Assembly: GCA_946623825.1 (NCBI GenBank)
Contig: CAMORN010000001.1
Location: 258,246-322,245 of the forward strand
Direction of reading: 5' to 3'
DNA length: 64,000 nt
Origin: an uncultured Alphaproteobacteria bacterium
GTDB lineage: Bacteria > Pseudomonadota > Alphaproteobacteria > Rs-D84
Part shown: positions 40,091 to 47,231 of the stretch, piece after piece
Position numbering within the stretch: position 1 is the stretch's first letter
Layout of the letters: every line of letters starts with the position of its first letter
The notes under the pieces: model-generated
What the model saw: only the letters and a program-made list of their open reading frames with translations
Databases searched by the model: none
What the model was told of the DNA's origin: nothing
Translations under genes and position numbers: made by a program

Positions 40091-40456
40091 AATAGTTCCC
40101 TACATCATATCCATAGATAATTTATTCTTGGTGTGCTATGGTATCACAAAAAAAACGTAATACAAATATATTTTTTTAATGTATAGAAAAATTTTTTACT
40201 ATACGTGATATCGGCTAAGATATATTCTTTGTCAGAATTCCTAACATCAGAATGAATTGAAACAAAACATTAAATAAAAGTCAATGTTATTTTATGAATA
40301 TAAAATACAGTCATTGTAGGTAAAAAAATCGTGTGCTTTTTACAAAAAATACGATAAATTCAAAAAAGTGTCAAGCAAAGTGTCAGGCAAACTGATAAAA
40401 ATGGCTGAATTTCGGGTTAAAACGGACTAAAAAATGCCAAAAAAAGGCGTGATTGT

Positions 40457-40591
40457 GGTTCCCTTTGCTCGCACCAGAAATTATAAACACCCGAAAGGGT
40501 TTTTTTTTTATTGTTGTATTAGCAAAGGGGCGAGAACCCGCAGGGTTGCGAGGCGAGACAACGCAGTTGCCGAAGTACTTTGCTCGCACCA
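40457..40591 (+). repeat. distal copy of the tRNA-Gly-associated unit bracketed by two tRNA 3'-end copies
   Basis: GGTTCCCTTTGCTCGCACCA (40457-40476) is the T-loop/acceptor with a 4-nt deletion. It is followed by the terminator hairpin, GCAAAGGGGCGAGAACCCGCAGGGTTGCGAGGCGAGACAACGCAGTTGCCGAAGTA, and CTTTGCTCGCACCA (40578-40591). Confidence 0.9.
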
Positions 40592-40737
40592 GAAATTATA
40601 AACACCCGAAAGGGTGTTTTTTTTATTTGGTTAAACATGAATAAGTAAAATATTTATAAAATAAATATTGACAAATATATTTATTTGTATATTATATGTA
40701 TAAATAAGTTTTATTTTGTGATAAAGGTTGTAAAAAA

Positions 40738-42074: not shown

Positions 42075-42118
42075 GCAAAGGGGGGAGTTGCGAGGCGAGG
42101 CAACACAGTTGCCGAAGT
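42075..42118 (+). repeat. partial third copy of the tRNA-Gly-associated unit (no tRNA 3'-end copy)
   Basis: GCAAAGGGGGGAGTTGCGAGGCGAGGCAACACAGTTGCCGAAGT. It keeps the hairpin GGCAAC-ACA-GTTGCC but lacks CGAGAACCCGCA and the CTTTGCTCGCACCA end. Confidence 0.8.
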
Positions 42119-42119
42119 G

Positions 42120-42392
42120 TTATTTCTTTTTTCTGTGTAATTTAAGAATCATGTATAATACGACTGAACTGAATGATAATGTGATGGTGTCGGAAATAAC
42201 CATCTGGATAGATTTCAGGTATATTCCATACAATATCCAAAATACCAAACCGGTACAATATATCAAATACATTGTCAGAGACAATCCAGAAACATCTTTT
42301 GTTTTGATAGATTTTATTGCTTGTGGCAAGAAAGCAATTGTTGTGCATGTGCAACATATACAGCCGATTATTTCACCGATTATTGGATTCAT
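42120..42392 (-). CDS. SemiSWEET (PQ-loop) family transporter
   Basis: 90 aa with three TM helices and AFLPQAIKSIKTKDVSGLSL (PQ motif). Confidence 0.75.
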   Translation of the reverse strand: MNPIIGEIIGCICCTCTTIAFLPQAIKSIKTKDVSGLSLTMYLIYCTGLVFWILYGIYLKSIQMVISDTITLSFSSVVLYMILKLHRKKK

Positions 42393-42645
42393 GATTTTAT
42401 TCCTTTCATTATTCGCAAGCGCATTATATAAATCTGCAAAATTAAAATCAAGTATTCATCAGATTTTTATTGAAAATTTGCAAGATATATGTTATAAATT
42501 ATGTCTGTAAAGAAATCACAACGGGTGGTTAAACAATGAAATTAAATATTAAACGTTTTTTTAATTAAGGGTGCGACCATCAAACAATTTGACGGACGCA
42601 CTGGACTGTGTCCGTTTTTTTATGCTAAAACAAAGGAAAAATAAA

Positions 42646-44112
42646 ATGGCAGAAAACACAAATATATCTACGAACGAATTAACAGCACGTATGCAAAAGG
42701 TTGAAAATATTAAACAACGTGATGGTGTTGTTTGGAAAGATAAATTTGACCGTTCTCATAAAATATGTGAAGCACGTGAATTGGCAGATGAAACCCCTGT
42801 AAAATTGGCGGGTCGTGTCACAGCACTTCGTTGGTTGGGTAAATTGATGTTTGGCCGTATTTATGATATCGAAGGTGAAATTCAATTTTCAATGTCCCGT
42901 GAAGAATTAGGCGAAGAAAATTATAAATTTATGAAATCCAATGTTGATATGGGTGATTTTATCGGTATTACTGGAACTTTGTATCATACAACTGCTGGTG
43001 AATTGACTGTCCGTGTTTCTGGTTATGAAATCTTGGCCAAGGCACTGCGCCCATTACCAGAAAAATTCCATGGCCTTACAGATATGGAAACACGTTATCG
43101 TCAAAGATATTTGGATATTATTTCTAATGAAGAAGCACGCAATGCTTTGCTTGGTCGTTTCAAAATGACACACAATTTGCGTGAATTTATGAACAGAAAT
43201 GGTTTCCTTGAAATAGAAACACCAATTATGCAAAATATTGCATCTGGTGCGGCTGCAAAACCATTTACAACACACCATAATGCGTTGGATGCAGATTTTC
43301 AATTGCGTATTTCCCCAGAATTATTCTTGAAACAGGCAATTGGTGCGGGTTTTGACCGTGTTTATGAAGTTGCAAAAGATTTCCGTAACGAAGGTATGGA
43401 CGCAATGCACCTGCAAGAATTTACAATGATTGAATGGTATGCTGCATATTGGGATTATAAACGTAACATAGATTTCACATGGGAAATGGTGCAAGAATTA
43501 ATTCAAAAGGCACGCGGAACATTGCAAATTGAATACCAAGGTACAATGTTAGATTTCTCTAAATATGAAATGATAGATTACACTGCCAGAATGAATGAAT
43601 TGTTTGGTTGTGATATTCTTGAATTTAATGATGTAGATAAATTGCGCAAACAATTATATGACAATGGTATGTTCCCAGTTGGTGAATTGGACGATTTGAA
43701 ATCGATACCTACATTGGTTGATTATGTTTATAAACGCAAAATCCGTAACCAAATCGTTCAACCTACATTTTTGTATAACTATCCAACATATATGGTGCCA
43801 TTGGCGCGTCATAACGACAATGACGACCGCAGATTAGATATGTATCAATTGTTGGTTGCTGGTGGTGAATTATGCAAGGGTTATTCAGAACTTGTAAATC
43901 CAATGCAACAATTGGCTGCATTTGAAGAACAGGCAAAAAATATTGCTGGTGGCGAAGAAGAAGCTTTTAACCCAGATAACGATTTCGTTCGTGCTATGGA
44001 ACATGGTTTTCCACCAATTTCAGGTGTGGGTATGGGTATTGACCGTTTAGCTATGATTGTGTTCAATCAACCAACCGCACGTGATGTTATCTTGTTCCCA
44101 ATAATGAAATAA
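42646..44112 (+). CDS. lysS: lysine--tRNA ligase, class II
   Basis: OB-fold N-domain, RYRQRYLDII, FLEIETPIMQ (motif 2 region), and GMGIDRLAMI (motif 3). The start was trimmed to ATG 42646 (AAAGGAAAA RBS). Confidence 0.93.
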   Translation: MAENTNISTNELTARMQKVENIKQRDGVVWKDKFDRSHKICEARELADETPVKLAGRVTALRWLGKLMFGRIYDIEGEIQFSMSREELGEENYKFMKSNVDMGDFIGITGTLYHTTAGELTVRVSGYEILAKALRPLPEKFHGLTDMETRYRQRYLDIISNEEARNALLGRFKMTHNLREFMNRNGFLEIETPIMQNIASGAAAKPFTTHHNALDADFQLRISPELFLKQAIGAGFDRVYEVAKDFRNEGMDAMHLQEFTMIEWYAAYWDYKRNIDFTWEMVQELIQKARGTLQIEYQGTMLDFSKYEMIDYTARMNELFGCDILEFNDVDKLRKQLYDNGMFPVGELDDLKSIPTLVDYVYKRKIRNQIVQPTFLYNYPTYMVPLARHNDNDDRRLDMYQLLVAGGELCKGYSELVNPMQQLAAFEEQAKNIAGGEEEAFNPDNDFVRAMEHGFPPISGVGMGIDRLAMIVFNQPTARDVILFPIMK

Positions 44113-44127
44113 AAAAAGGAAACATAT

Positions 44128-45534
44128 ATGTCAAATCTTGATGACATACAAGATGTGTTTTTACGCACAAAATTGCACGACGAAAAAAACATATCTGTCA
44201 TAAACGAAGCCTGTGAAGAAGGTCGCATAGATGAAGCGAGCAGGGATTATCTGTTAAATTTATACACAGATTCAATGGATTGGTTCCGTGAGGTGTTCTT
44301 GTATATCGGTAAATGTTTTGGTGCACCAAAGGCGGCTGTGCACGCATACGATTATTCAAAAGATGCCGTGATAGATTCACCGATTACAATATCATCTATT
44401 AATCCGCTTGAACCATATCTGGTTAACCATCGTCTGGACGATGATCCGATGCGTAATCAATTTTTTATGCTGACAGACAGACATAAAATAGATTTGGCTG
44501 TGTCTTCTATTATTACTGTAATTGTTGGTGCACAAAAAAGCATAAATCGTGCCATAGAAAAGATAACTGGTAAATACTATGATGATTATGTAAAAGATGT
44601 TGCAAAAACAGCATATGATGTTATTGCAAAAACAGGCCGCGAAGCATCTGCACGTGCAATATCTGAAAAAATCAAAGAAACATTTTCTAAAGATTTTATA
44701 ACAGATGCGTCTGAAACTGTTCTTGAAATAATCGGTTCCAGCCACAATCAAATTGCTGCAAATATGGTTCGTGAATTGGATAAAATTAAGAAACCGTATG
44801 AAAGATTGGAAGATGTTTGGCGTATTAAATGTTTATTTGATTTGGTACCTCAGGCACGCACATTTATTGAACGCGTTTGCAAAATGTGGCCTGAAAAAAT
44901 CATAGATGTTCGTGATAAATTTTTTGATATTACAAATCCACGTGGTTATCGTGATGCAAAATTGGTTTTGAATATCGGACATAACGGGGCAATTGTTCCA
45001 ATGGAAATAATTTGTCAGGTTCGTACATTTTTTGAATTTGAACACCAAACACATTCTGTGTATGAAAAATCAAGAAAAATCAAAACTGCAACTGCGCACA
45101 GCAGGGAACAATTGGAAAATCAAACAGAAACTCTGCACATAGAAGGCGTAAAAAAATACAATGCTATGATTTGTGATTGTGTAGATGATTTGTTTGACCG
45201 AATTGGTTGGAATATTTTGTACAGTGATGGTGATACTGATATGTTGTTTGATGGTTTCCCAAGAATATCTACAATATATTATCCACAAAAAATAACCGAT
45301 ATAATTATGGAAAAAGTTGATAATGCGGTTGAAAACGAAGTTTTCTTTGTACAAAATGCACCTACAAAATTGAGTAAAGACCAAGAAATCAGAATTTTCC
45401 GTTGGATGGCTAAATTTATATTGGTTTCCGCAATGCCGTATTCTTATTCAGATTGGACGGTTAACACGGATACAATGTCCGGAAAATTCTTTAATTTTAT
45501 AATGAAAGAATTGCAAAGATATTATAAAAAATAG
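44128..45534 (+). CDS. orphan protein with RelA/SpoT-type nucleotidyltransferase (alarmone-synthetase-like) core
   Basis: Residues about 215-320 (DVWRIKCLFDLVPQARTFIERV ... ITNPRGYRDAKLVLNI ... VPMEIICQVRTFFEFEHQTHSVYEKSR) align with small alarmone synthetase blocks (DLAGIRII ... KPNGYRSLHLIV ... PVEVQIRT...EH...YK). The long flanking regions are unrecognised. Confidence 0.6.
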   Translation: MSNLDDIQDVFLRTKLHDEKNISVINEACEEGRIDEASRDYLLNLYTDSMDWFREVFLYIGKCFGAPKAAVHAYDYSKDAVIDSPITISSINPLEPYLVNHRLDDDPMRNQFFMLTDRHKIDLAVSSIITVIVGAQKSINRAIEKITGKYYDDYVKDVAKTAYDVIAKTGREASARAISEKIKETFSKDFITDASETVLEIIGSSHNQIAANMVRELDKIKKPYERLEDVWRIKCLFDLVPQARTFIERVCKMWPEKIIDVRDKFFDITNPRGYRDAKLVLNIGHNGAIVPMEIICQVRTFFEFEHQTHSVYEKSRKIKTATAHSREQLENQTETLHIEGVKKYNAMICDCVDDLFDRIGWNILYSDGDTDMLFDGFPRISTIYYPQKITDIIMEKVDNAVENEVFFVQNAPTKLSKDQEIRIFRWMAKFILVSAMPYSYSDWTVNTDTMSGKFFNFIMKELQRYYKK

Positions 45535-45670
45535 CAAATCAAAGGGGTGAAACATAAGATTTCATCCCTTTCTTATTTTCTTGCGTTTTATTTCCGTTTT
45601 AATGTAAAATATAAACAGGTTATTGAAAGGGTTTGCAATAACCATAACAAGCATAACAAAGGATTCGATT

Positions 45671-46006
45671 ATGCGTCAAGGAAAGGTAAAATGGTATAAC
45701 GGTAAAAAATGCTTTGGCTTTATTACCCCAGATACACCAAATCAAGATGGAAATACAGACGATGTGTTTGTTCATTCCAGTGCATTAAAGGCAGCAGAAA
45801 TTCGTTTTTTAAATGAAAATGATATTGTTGAATTTGAAGAAGAAGTCAGAAATGGCAAATTATCAGTAACAACATTGAAACTGATACAAAGGGACGAAGA
45901 ATCTGCAAGAAGATTCCAAGAACGTCGTGCAGAAAGACGACGCGCAATAGAAGGTCGCAAACAGAGAGAAGAAAAGAAACATGGTTTCGCTTTCTGGAAA
46001 AAATAA
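45671..46006 (+). CDS. cold-shock domain protein with Arg/Lys-rich C-terminal extension
   Basis: MRQGKVKWYNGKKCFGFITPD...VFVHSSAL (RNP1/RNP2-like), then RRFQERRAERRRAIEGRKQREEKK. The start was trimmed to ATG 45671. Confidence 0.85.
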   Translation: MRQGKVKWYNGKKCFGFITPDTPNQDGNTDDVFVHSSALKAAEIRFLNENDIVEFEEEVRNGKLSVTTLKLIQRDEESARRFQERRAERRRAIEGRKQREEKKHGFAFWKK

Positions 46007-46046: not shown

Positions 46047-46646
46047 TTAATATGTTTTTCCGGTGTGTTCACGTGCGATTTTAATAATACCAGGTAATGG
46101 GTATTCGCGGAACATAAATTTTTTAGTTTCTTTATCTGTATATCTTAAATTTTTGCGAACAAATCCTTCTGGTAAAACAGAATCAAAATATTGTACATCT
46201 TTCCAACCGTTTTGATTTGGTAATTGGTATGGATAATATTGTTGTGGAACATTATTTATGATTATTGCATTGAAAGGAATATTGTTTTTTCCAAAAAATG
46301 TTACACGATGTTGACCGTCTATCAGAAGTGGTTGATTATCTATTATTTCAACGATAGGTGGGGTCAAAGAGTATTCAGAATCAAGTGTTTTATATTCAAT
46401 AAAGCCCTTTAATTTCGCAATATCTATATTTTTGTTCATAAAATAATCGTTCAAAACCCTTATATTATATACTTGGTCCCATAAAACAAAATATTGTGTT
46501 GGTAAAACATCTTTTGCAGTGATTTCTGAAATATAAATATCTGATTGTACAAATGGTTTAATGTTTTTATTGCCACGCAGAGTTGTATTTTTCATAATGT
46601 TTAATAATTCTTGTTCTGGGTGCATGGTGTATTCTAATATTTTCAC
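46047..46646 (-). CDS. ParB/sulfiredoxin-like nuclease-domain protein
   Basis: DVLPTQ... and PLLIDGQHRV (DGxHR box). The GTG start directly follows AAGGAAAGGAAA. Confidence 0.55.
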   Translation of the reverse strand: MKILEYTMHPEQELLNIMKNTTLRGNKNIKPFVQSDIYISEITAKDVLPTQYFVLWDQVYNIRVLNDYFMNKNIDIAKLKGFIEYKTLDSEYSLTPPIVEIIDNQPLLIDGQHRVTFFGKNNIPFNAIIINNVPQQYYPYQLPNQNGWKDVQYFDSVLPEGFVRKNLRYTDKETKKFMFREYPLPGIIKIAREHTGKTY

Positions 46647-46712
46647 TTTCCTTTCCTTTTTTTATACTTATAATAAGATACCGAATACTAGTAAAATGAA
46701 AGGAAAAAAGCA

Positions 46713-47231
46713 ATGACTTTTTATTTTGATATGGACGGTGTTTTGGCAGATTTTGATTCGTCTGCACCAAAAAACAGTCAATCTTTAAATCATCCGTCTG
46801 AATCTATGTCTGATACAGAAAAACAAGCAAAAAAACAATTCTGGCAAACCATAGAACAAAATAAAAATTTTTGGCGTGATATTCCTGTTTTTGCTGGTGT
46901 TAAAGAAGTCTTGAAATCTGCACAAGCCAAAGGTGAAATATTCGTTTTAACAAAAACACCATCTGCAAAACATTTTGTCGGTGGTCAAGATTATGTAGAT
47001 TTTGTTACAAAAGAAAAAATAGATTGGATATTGAAAAATATGGCTGAATTTTTTGATAAAAAACATATTATCGTATGTGATGGTAAAAAGGGTGCTTTGA
47101 TAAACCCGACCGCAGACGATATTTTAATAGATGACAGAGCGGAAAACATAACAGAATGGGAACAGCATAACGGTCGTGGAATATTGTTTGATGAAATATC
47201 CCGTGTAATTAAAGAAATAAATAAATTATAA
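46713..47231 (+). CDS. HAD-superfamily 5'(3')-deoxyribonucleotidase-like protein
   Basis: MTFYFDMDGVLADF (DxDGV motif I), VLTKTP (motif II-like), and IDDRAEN (motif IV-like). Confidence 0.65.
   Translation: MTFYFDMDGVLADFDSSAPKNSQSLNHPSESMSDTEKQAKKQFWQTIEQNKNFWRDIPVFAGVKEVLKSAQAKGEIFVLTKTPSAKHFVGGQDYVDFVTKEKIDWILKNMAEFFDKKHIIVCDGKKGALINPTADDILIDDRAENITEWEQHNGRGILFDEISRVIKEINKL

Follow-up and report, generated by a model that had tools for sequence, protein, structure and literature searches.

A divergent RelA/SpoT-superfamily protein encoded next to lysS in gut Alphaproteobacteria of the order Rs-D84

The gene described here, called X, lies in a 64,000-nucleotide stretch of an uncultured alphaproteobacterial genome (GenBank assembly GCA_946623825.1, 933 kb in size; contig CAMORN010000001.1, positions 258,246 to 322,245), which is referred to as the window and to which all positions refer. 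X occupies 44128..45534 on the + strand, stop codon included, is the first gene 3' of the lysyl-tRNA synthetase (LysRS) gene lysS, and encodes a protein of 468 residues. This protein is a divergent member of the RelA/SpoT homologue (RSH) superfamily, of the small-alarmone-synthetase type, and its core is almost certainly a homologue of the RSH synthetase fold. From its conserved residues we propose, with about even confidence, that X is an active cytoplasmic, regulated pyrophosphokinase that would make a purine-nucleotide alarmone.

Membership in the RSH superfamily

Scanned as a single sequence, X gives nothing significant in Pfam, NCBIfam, PADLOC, PHROGs or the PDB sequences. A profile built from 33 X-family members, however, matches RelP of B. 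subtilis in the PDB (6FGK, E=4e-5); its next two matches, not significant with E-values of 0.12 and 0.26, are again small alarmone synthetases. With the profile restricted to the core, RelP is found at E=4.2e-6 and the next four matches are also small alarmone synthetases. When a helical insert (see below) is deleted from the profile, a deletion made for alignment only, all eight of the eight best PDB matches are small alarmone synthetases, and the alignments to RelQ now reach over the first synthetase motif. PF04607 (RelA_SpoT) itself matches 4 of the 33 family members, all below threshold (best E=3.9e-4).

The structural comparison gives the same picture. The AlphaFold2 model of X, computed from the family alignment, has a predicted local distance difference test score (pLDDT) of 88.7 and a predicted template-modelling (pTM) score of 0.86. 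In a Foldseek search against the PDB, all 50 matches listed are RSH synthetases (CapRel, RelQ, RelP, an exported synthetase, FaRel2 and Rel), aligned over ~125–145 columns with a root-mean-square deviation (rmsd) of 4–5 Å and a target TM-score of 0.40–0.47; the best single match is CapRel (9erv, E=1.7e-5). In the viral library, phage RelA/SpoT proteins come out on top.

A third line of evidence is transitive. The X-family profile, run on 401 genomes of the class, has two kinds of match outside the X family: distant full-length homologues, which are open reading frames (ORFs) of 515–525 aa in one other genus, and short bridging proteins, 216 and 214 aa long, which two genera of a different family encode and whose core is matched at E of about 1e-12. 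The bridging proteins exceed the PF04607 cut-off (39.9 bits vs 27), match X in BLASTP (E=3e-8, 31% over 131 residues), and have Tas1/Apk1 (6OX6) as their best solved relative. Tas1/Apk1 is a (p)ppApp-synthesising type VI effector domain. The X profile itself finds no match to Tas1 at E<=1. When X is aligned jointly with two distant homologues and both bridging proteins, the invariant positions are K137, R141, K145, K149, Y150, L227, D229, R232, Y274, K278, E293, T308, H309, Y312, E313, R316, Y344 and N345, and X residues about 153–224 appear as an insertion. The variants K-x3-R-x3-K-x3-[K/D]-Y and D-[LV]-x-R are common to X and the short Tas1-like proteins; the K-x3-R-x3-K-x3-K-Y of the first motif of X is aligned in the PF04607-positive 216-aa proteins, and the element is present in Tas1. 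Judged from these sequences, the X core most likely comes from the Tas1/Apk1–RelV-like branch of small-alarmone-synthetase-type pyrophosphokinase domains. The Tas1/Apk1-type and RelV-related synthetases (6OX6; exported 8VX3; PMC12691689) are thus tied to X via the short Tas1-like proteins, at E=2e-9. In the supplementary lists of that work, which may carry accessions only, no Enterousia, Alphaproteobacteria bacterium or Rs-D84 is found.

Profile search, structure search and the transitive link through PF04607-positive proteins together place X, as predicted from sequence and model, in the RSH superfamily. An earlier, sequence-only reading of the window had taken X for a divergent RSH-fold nucleotidyltransferase and had named profile and Foldseek searches as its check; the assignment stands, with RelP found at E=4e-5 to 4e-6 and the top Foldseek matches all RSH synthetases, while PF04607 itself misses X.

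One further genome, from another family of the order, carries a long RSH and a 295-aa ORF that PF04607 scores at 23 bits (G044:C30:30966-31253). We assume that the weak X-profile match in this genome (1e-7) is that ORF, which could represent another bridging form within the order.

Active site and architecture of the protein

The active site of X can be read against that of SaRelP, the RelP of S. aureus. There, R78 and R112 are the adenine-stacking residues, K80, S84, K88 and R91 the phosphate ligands, and D107 (strand 2) and E174 (strand 5) the Mg2+ ligands; Y151 of the G-loop between strands 3 and 4 binds the acceptor base, and H190 contacts the ribose (PMC5794853). For FaRel2 the equivalents given are R64 and R95, which sandwich the adenine, and the acceptor tyrosine Y128 (PMC11782079). 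By alignment, the phosphate-binding K80, S84 and K88 correspond to K137, R141 and K145 of X, all three invariant, and R91 to G148/K149; on their strand–helix unit these three residues are spaced as in the triphosphate element R-x-K-x3-S-x3-K-x2-R, with R141 replacing the serine, and would thus be the triphosphate ligands. The predicted Mg2+ ligands are the invariant D229 (SaRelP D107) and E293 (E174). The acceptor tyrosine is Y274, also invariant, in the loop N-P-R-G-Y-R-D-A-K, which is aligned to N-G-Y-R-S, and the ribose histidine is the invariant H309, with an E-to-H spacing of 16 residues in both proteins.

The adenine-stacking positions differ. R78 becomes A135, so that stacking is lost at this position, and R112 becomes K234, with the invariant R232 two residues earlier. 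The first arginine of the triphosphate element, Ala135 in the genus of X, is Arg in two of the four aligned remote homologues (P0151, P0154) and Lys in P0155. R232 lies on the same strand face as K234 and, by its position in the sequence, may substitute for the adenine-stacking arginine.

K137, R141, K145, D229, R232, Y274, K278, E293, H309 and R316 do not vary even among homologues of 20% identity. Both metal ligands, the acceptor tyrosine, the ribose histidine and the two lysines predicted to bind phosphate belong to this set; their conservation over such a distance speaks for an enzyme that works, and catalytic activity seems to us clearly probable. The motif variants D-x-x-R, K-x3-R-x3-K and E-x-x-x-Q-x-R are also present in the short Tas1-like proteins, and we therefore regard them as traits of the branch and not as decay. 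The canonical E-I-Q-I-R-T reads E-I-I-C-Q-V-R-T in X. The peptide quoted by the sequence-only reading is present (D229-VWRIKCLF ... NPRGY274RDAK ... ME293IICQVRT ... H309SVYEKSR), but the two-residue insertion it saw before QVRT is better described as a substitution pattern, E293-x-[I/Q]-x-Q297-x-R299, the Pfam-positive relatives having E-M-Q-I-Q-L-R. The acceptor loop of X carries a basic cluster formed by R262, K264, R272, R275 and K278. A large positive patch is reported for alarmone synthetases and a smaller one in the tRNA-modifying FaRel2 (PMC11782079); by its sequence, the X loop appears as basic as in the nucleotide-using synthetases.

Around this core the architecture is new: an N-terminal part of 127 aa, a helical insert of 75 aa and a C-terminal part of 148 aa. 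The N-terminal part (residues 1–127; 44128..44508, +) consists of three helices followed by five short strands in the DSSP assignment of the full model and is acidic (isoelectric point, pI, 4.6). The first synthetase motif (residues 128–150; 44509..44577, +) is defined by alignment and DSSP as a strand at 128–133 and a helix at 139–147, and contains the element K137-x3-R141-x3-K145-x3-K149-Y150, predicted to bind the ATP triphosphate, with K137, R141 and K145 invariant in three alignments. The inserted subdomain (residues about 151–225; 44578..44802, +), recognised from the gap against the bridging synthetases, has helices at 149–167, 172–188, 194–202 and 204–218 in the model; it is missing in canonical small alarmone synthetases and shorter in homologues of the remote clade. 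The catalytic core (residues 226–320; 44803..45087, +), delimited by HMMER alignments to RelP/RelQ, BLASTP and the invariant columns, runs from the D229/R232 strand through the G-loop NPRGY274RDAK278 and the E293 strand to the helix T308-H309-x-x-Y312-E313-x-x-R316; the codons of D229, Y274 and E293 are at 44812-44814, 44947-44949 and 45004-45006. Finally, the C-terminal helical part (residues 321–468; 45088..45531, +, from DSSP) has one helix of 43 residues and three further helices, and includes an invariant Y344 and a nearly invariant N345, a pair common to the short relatives. The N-terminal stretch left unassigned by the sequence-only reading thus shrinks from about 210 residues to ~127, since 128–150 form motif 1 and about 151–225 the helical insert.

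Library scans give no known domain or family match for the N- and C-terminal parts. Modelled alone, residues 1–127 reach a pLDDT of 68.6 and are confident only within the whole protein; searched alone with Foldseek, they have no match at E<1 (best E=1.4). The poor lone model and the lack of a fold match argue that the N-terminal part is an integral elaboration of the globule rather than a domain of its own. Two of its residues, I34 and Y46, are invariant even in homologues of 20% identity.

In comparison with canonical small alarmone synthetases, then, X has the same fold and order of motifs, and shares with them D229/E293, Y274 in the G-Y-R loop, the predicted triphosphate lysines K137/K145, H309 and the E-to-H spacing. 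It differs in size (468 aa against about 210–230 aa, owing to the N-terminal part, the insert and the four-helix C-terminal part), in the changes Ser to Arg at 141 and His to Lys at 278, in the new invariant R232, and in being sub-threshold in Pfam. No sign of the tetramer or of the pppGpp allostery of the canonical enzymes is seen in X.

Inheritance and genomic setting

X was called an orphan on first inspection; it is merely unannotated. A search of 5.8 billion proteins yields 603 clusters of homologues (clustered at 90%) at E<=0.001, of which the best 120 are full-length with 60–95% identity; the named ones among these 120 are listed as "hypothetical protein" from Alphaproteobacteria metagenome-assembled genomes (MAGs) or Candidatus Enterousia. 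The 277 species-representative genomes with a relative all belong to Enterousia or to uncultured alphaproteobacterial MAGs from rumen, faeces and caecum. Clustering at 50% (1.84 billion proteins) reduces the family to about a dozen full-length representatives: the X family is narrow but deep. Two homologues of intermediate distance, P0124 (629 aa) and P0130 (654 aa), are longer still at the N terminus, where ~150 additional residues form a basic stretch that is rich in Pro and Lys and probably disordered.

Within the order Rs-D84, 258 of 301 genomes have an X-profile match, all of them bar one weak match in a single family, here f1, which comprises the genus of X (Enterousia) and 15 other genera. 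The gene is single-copy and is present in about 99% of the genus genomes sampled; in the scan of 37 genus genomes it is matched in 36. Against seven orthologues, X has a ratio of nonsynonymous to synonymous substitution rates (dN/dS) of 0.07–0.13; for the same genome pairs the values are 0.03–0.11 for lysS and 0.06–0.10 for csp, the cold-shock-domain gene downstream. Its G+C content of 0.32–0.39 equals that of its neighbours, and with the conserved synteny this led us to reject horizontal acquisition. X is a vertically inherited chromosomal core gene under strong purifying selection.

Its hosts have small genomes: those of Enterousia (order Rs-D84) stay below 1 Mb and do not encode the biosynthesis of amino acids and nucleotides, and the bacteria are thought to rely on other cells (PMC12306168). 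PF04607 is not found in the assembly of the window, in 36 other genus genomes or in two further genomes that are 99–100% complete, nor, even at E<=1, in a closed circular genus genome of 958,618 bp. A long RSH is likewise missing from all of 41 further f1 genomes, one of which has a small synthetase of 247 aa; this brings the count of long RSH to 0/78 in f1 (37 genus genomes and these 41). The check for a canonical long RSH elsewhere that the sequence-only reading had suggested thus finds none, whether in this assembly, the closed genome or the 78 f1 genomes. With the exception of that one 247-aa protein, X is the only RSH-type synthetase in a family that lost its long RSH.

The long bifunctional RSH of the sister families (about 720 aa) belongs to the same superfamily and has the same type of catalytic domain as X. 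The two are distributed in a complementary way at the level of families: an ORF of about 720 aa is present in 19/24 genomes of the order's other families, none of them with X, whereas f1 has X and no long RSH. Their architecture also differs, as the long RSH has HD hydrolase, TGS and ACT/RRM domains; domain scans of X give no HD_4, TGS or ACT match, and it does not have the architecture of a long RSH (about 700–750 aa). Nor does X stand at a long-RSH locus. The long-RSH loci of five sister genomes are without lysS and csp, on which ground we rejected the idea that X is a long RSH decayed in place. A long RSH of 720–732 aa accompanies both the distant full-length homologues and the short bridging proteins in every case, a finding that speaks against simple replacement and argues that the X lineage is an old paralogue, not a decayed ortholog.

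Two other possible components of alarmone signalling were seen in the genus. Stand-alone HD_4 ORFs of 343–388 aa, resembling small alarmone hydrolases, are found in 3/37 genus genomes, not adjacent to X (G005:C3:2862-3218, G010:C19:13252-13614 and G030:C3:22916-23275). A DksA-like protein of 148 aa, with the D-x-x-D-x-A tip of the coiled coil and no zinc-finger cysteines, is present in 36/37; its retention weakly favours the survival of alarmone-type transcription control. It is encoded outside the window (G000:C2:164153-164236, –, and the surrounding ORF).

At the locus itself, X follows lysS, which encodes a class II LysRS (42571..44112, +; Pfam tRNA-synt_2 at E=1e-74 and an OB anticodon-binding domain) and lies upstream in what looks like the same transcription unit. 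The lysS stop codon TAA (44110-44112) is followed by an intergenic spacer of 15 nt, read from the sequence, as is the Shine-Dalgarno-like AAAGGA (44115..44120, +) 7 nt 5' of the X ATG; ORF, length and ribosome-binding site are as first described. The consensus scan finds no terminator-like site between lysS and X, and a terminator-like hairpin followed by a T-run just past the X stop (45541..45571, +), where the unit would end. The two genes therefore look like one transcription unit, and X, from the sequence, looks co-transcribed with lysS. The conserved downstream neighbour is csp (45671..46006, +; Pfam CSD, E=2e-15), which has its own start region; its product carries a basic, Arg/Lys/Glu-rich C-terminal tail of 45 residues. 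Among related loci, lysS is immediately upstream of X in 68/73 (those with sufficient flank) and a cold-shock-domain gene immediately downstream in 64/77, and the other window genes around X are not conserved neighbours. In particular, a divergent pair of genes encoding a ParB-CE and an NT5C-like HAD protein (46047-47231) stands beside X in only 1/80; we therefore rejected a functional link between the pair and X, and the pair is a strain-specific insertion outside the conserved lysS–X–csp block.

The neighbourhoods of the distant homologues are likewise chromosomal and housekeeping in character. The gene for methionyl-tRNA formyltransferase, fmt, is convergent with a distant homologue in two lineages (L111, L112, L115, L116; P0154, P0160), a YbaK-type tRNA_edit gene stands beside another (L027), a further homologue has genes for a U32 peptidase, FtsJ and SRP54 near it, and one more has RuvB, a CdiA_C-like gene and an SMC-like ATPase. 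These tRNA and translation neighbours, taken with lysS, are a lead, not strong evidence for a role on tRNA, since they are not the same from one homologue to the next and fmt is encoded on the opposite strand.

Some features of the region upstream were seen in passing. The long, GTG-started ORF of lysS has a terminator-like hairpin inside it (42591-42616), and relatives align to the long ORF only from residue 20–39 on. For these two reasons the true start is probably the ATG at 42646, and the hairpin could act as a leader or attenuator-like element or mark where an upstream unit ends. Antisense to the region upstream of lysS lies an ORF for a three-helix membrane protein of 90 aa (42120-42392, –), which by eye resembles the PQ-loop/SemiSWEET type. 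Two short ORF translations, at 40453-40644 and 42088-42130, have the peptide TQLPK in common (GREPAGLRGETTQLPK; MRGEATQLPK); they stand in related contexts and correspond to repeated tRNA-end-like DNA units that flank a 429-aa gene on both sides.

Proposed reaction, its rivals and their meaning

The reaction that we propose for X follows the conserved residues. ATP–Mg2+ would be bound by K137, R141 and K145 at the triphosphate and by D229 and E293 at the metal, and the acceptor purine would be stacked on Y274 within the basic loop NPRGYRDAK. Transfer of the beta,gamma-pyrophosphate from ATP to the 3'-OH of the acceptor would then give a nucleotide of the (p)ppGpp and/or (p)ppApp type. That the acceptor is a free purine nucleotide is a suggestion from sequence to which we give about the same weight as to its contrary. 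The added parts, packed with the core into one globule, would probably gate the active site.

A number of observations weigh against this proposal. At the level of the superfamily, PF04607 finds no match to X at E<=1 and missed it in the whole-genome scan as well, and hhalign, comparing the X-family alignment with four synthetase domains of long RSH taken from the sister families, gave a probability of 2.6% and a misaligned pair; the latter failure we set aside as evidence against homology because the template alignment is too shallow. At the level of the active site, K137, R141 and K145 are assigned to the triphosphate by prediction from alignment and secondary structure. The arginine pair that sandwiches the adenine is replaced by A135 and K234 (Thr in remote homologues), and with both arginines gone and R232 two residues away the donor pocket must have been rebuilt. 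At the Q and R positions of the canonical E-I-Q-I-R-T, X has I295 and Q297. The substrate, moreover, is unreadable from sequence: there is no signature for tRNA-modifying members (bioRxiv 10.1101/2021.04.30.441581), and members of the Tas1/Apk1-related cluster make (p)ppApp, (p)ppGpp or both (PMC12691689). At the level of the organism, PF13328 (RSH-type hydrolase) has no match in 34/37 genus genomes, among them the genome of the window, nor in the closed genome, so that no dedicated enzyme is known that would break down an alarmone made by X. Aph1, which hydrolyses (p)ppApp, likewise belongs to the small alarmone hydrolases of HD fold (PMC10083569), and the same scan would be expected to detect an enzyme of that type. 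Fifteen of the 41 further f1 genomes, some of them 95–98% complete, have neither X nor a long RSH; X can therefore be lost and is not indispensable. Loss of both, together with the coexistence of distant homologues and long RSH, also weakened the idea of X as a simple replacement for the long RSH.

Several of these points could be taken to mean that the chemistry of X is non-canonical, with another donor or another acceptor, the latter perhaps a cofactor, a protein side chain, a nucleotide of a different kind or something made by LysRS, for example Ap4A. The replaced adenine-stacking arginines and the new invariant R232 and K149-Y150 element (cf. PMC5794853), the replaced Q and R of E-I-Q-I-R-T, the large conserved additions around the core, the genomes without an alarmone hydrolase (no PF13328 in 34/37 genus genomes or in the closed genome) and the widely varying specificity of the Tas1/Apk1-related cluster (PMC12691689) all agree with it. 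Nevertheless, the same variants occur in short PF04607-positive Tas1-like relatives, the characterised members of that branch use ATP as donor, and the acceptor tyrosine and G-Y-R loop are canonical, and we consider such chemistry unlikely. The substituted canonical positions (A135, K234, I295, Q297), taken with the failure of Pfam to recognise X and with the f1 lineages that lost X and gained no other RSH, might instead indicate a catalytically dead pseudo-enzyme whose fold is kept for a structural or regulatory role in binding. We find this improbable, since the ligands, tyrosine, lysines and histidine show the invariance typical of an active site at 20% identity and dN/dS is as low as in lysS.

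The acceptor could also be RNA. CapRel (9ERV) and FaRel2 (8PU1) are pyrophosphokinases of the tRNA CCA end, CapRel is the best single Foldseek match of X (9erv, E=1.7e-5), and the nearest relatives recognisable by sequence are Tas1/Apk1-like, a branch with adenosine as acceptor; no signature parts tRNA-modifying from nucleotide-modifying enzymes (bioRxiv 10.1101/2021.04.30.441581), and tRNA or translation genes recur as neighbours (lysS, fmt, tRNA_edit, U32 peptidase). X would then not be an alarmone synthetase, but a modifier of tRNA 3' ends that serves as an intrinsic and regulated check on aminoacylation or translation and may be tied to tRNA-Lys or to LysRS. This, too, has a small probability in our view: X is acidic to neutral (family pI 5.6–7.1) with an acidic N-terminal part, the acceptor loop keeps its basic cluster as in nucleotide-using enzymes, and the neighbours differ by lineage, fmt being convergent, and are perhaps ordinary housekeeping surroundings. 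The tRNA-modifying members known so far, moreover, are toxins: they are accompanied by antitoxins or sensors and lie in mobile or defence regions, and none of this is seen at X.

Least probable is that X is itself a toxin, either a CapRel-like fused toxin–antitoxin or phage-defence module or a delivered effector like Tas1, an idea raised by the sequence-only reading. Modules of the toxSAS type have an adjacent or fused antitoxin (pseudo-zinc-finger, Tis1-like or SAH), a patchy distribution and a place in mobile regions or defence islands. CapRel is a fusion of a toxic small alarmone synthetase with its antitoxin, and it resembles X in being one polypeptide in which the synthetase core is joined to a C-terminal extension that might control access to the active site; by this analogy the C-terminal part of X could have a fused, auto-inhibitory role. 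The long alignment of CapRel to X is poor, however (rmsd 24 Å over 375 columns), its pseudo-zinc-finger antitoxin domain is not recognised in X, the context of X is neither defence nor mobile, and X is acidic to neutral. Similarly, Tas1/Apk1 effectors have a delivery domain and an immunity gene, whereas X is without either and is a chromosomal core gene, not a weapon; the Pfam scan finds no signal peptide, PAAR, LXG or MuF domain in it. The similarity of fold to CapRel and FaRel2, the Tas1-like lineage, the large and possibly auto-inhibitory C-terminal part and a host thought to be an obligate symbiont or parasite (PMC12306168) would fit a toxin. A near-universal, single-copy gene of vertical descent and native G+C, held in the conserved order lysS–X–csp under strong purifying selection, does not. 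PADLOC and PHROG scans are empty, no immunity, antitoxin or other partner gene is adjacent, no secretion signal is found, and the distant homologues, too, stand among housekeeping genes.

A more far-reaching suggestion, which we advance as speculation and think unlikely to hold, is that X founds a housekeeping branch of RSH enzymes whose rebuilt donor pocket and added modules give a reaction undescribed for these enzymes. This might be, for example, a pyrophosphorylation coupled to LysRS or tRNA-Lys, or a nucleotide signal besides (p)ppGpp and (p)ppApp, in a lineage with no alarmone hydrolase. If true, it would be a substitute for the stringent response wired directly to the operon of an aminoacyl-tRNA synthetase.

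Whether a bacterium is credited with a stringent response is judged by its RSH enzymes. On annotation of the Pfam type, Candidatus Enterousia would count as RSH-free, together with the rest of its family of gut Alphaproteobacteria, whose genomes measure about 0.9 Mb; yet the family keeps a strongly conserved but Pfam-invisible protein of synthetase type whose active site looks intact, which has no hydrolase partner and whose position in the apparent lysS operon is fixed. The short Tas1-like proteins provide the sequence bridge from which a profile for this hidden branch could be built, which would be useful to RSH classification. If X does something else than make an alarmone, the chemistry of the superfamily is widened. 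If it does make an alarmone, as we propose, it would show that alarmone signalling can survive genome reduction and would present a new regulatory architecture around the synthetase core, and the turnover of the signal may not need an HD hydrolase.

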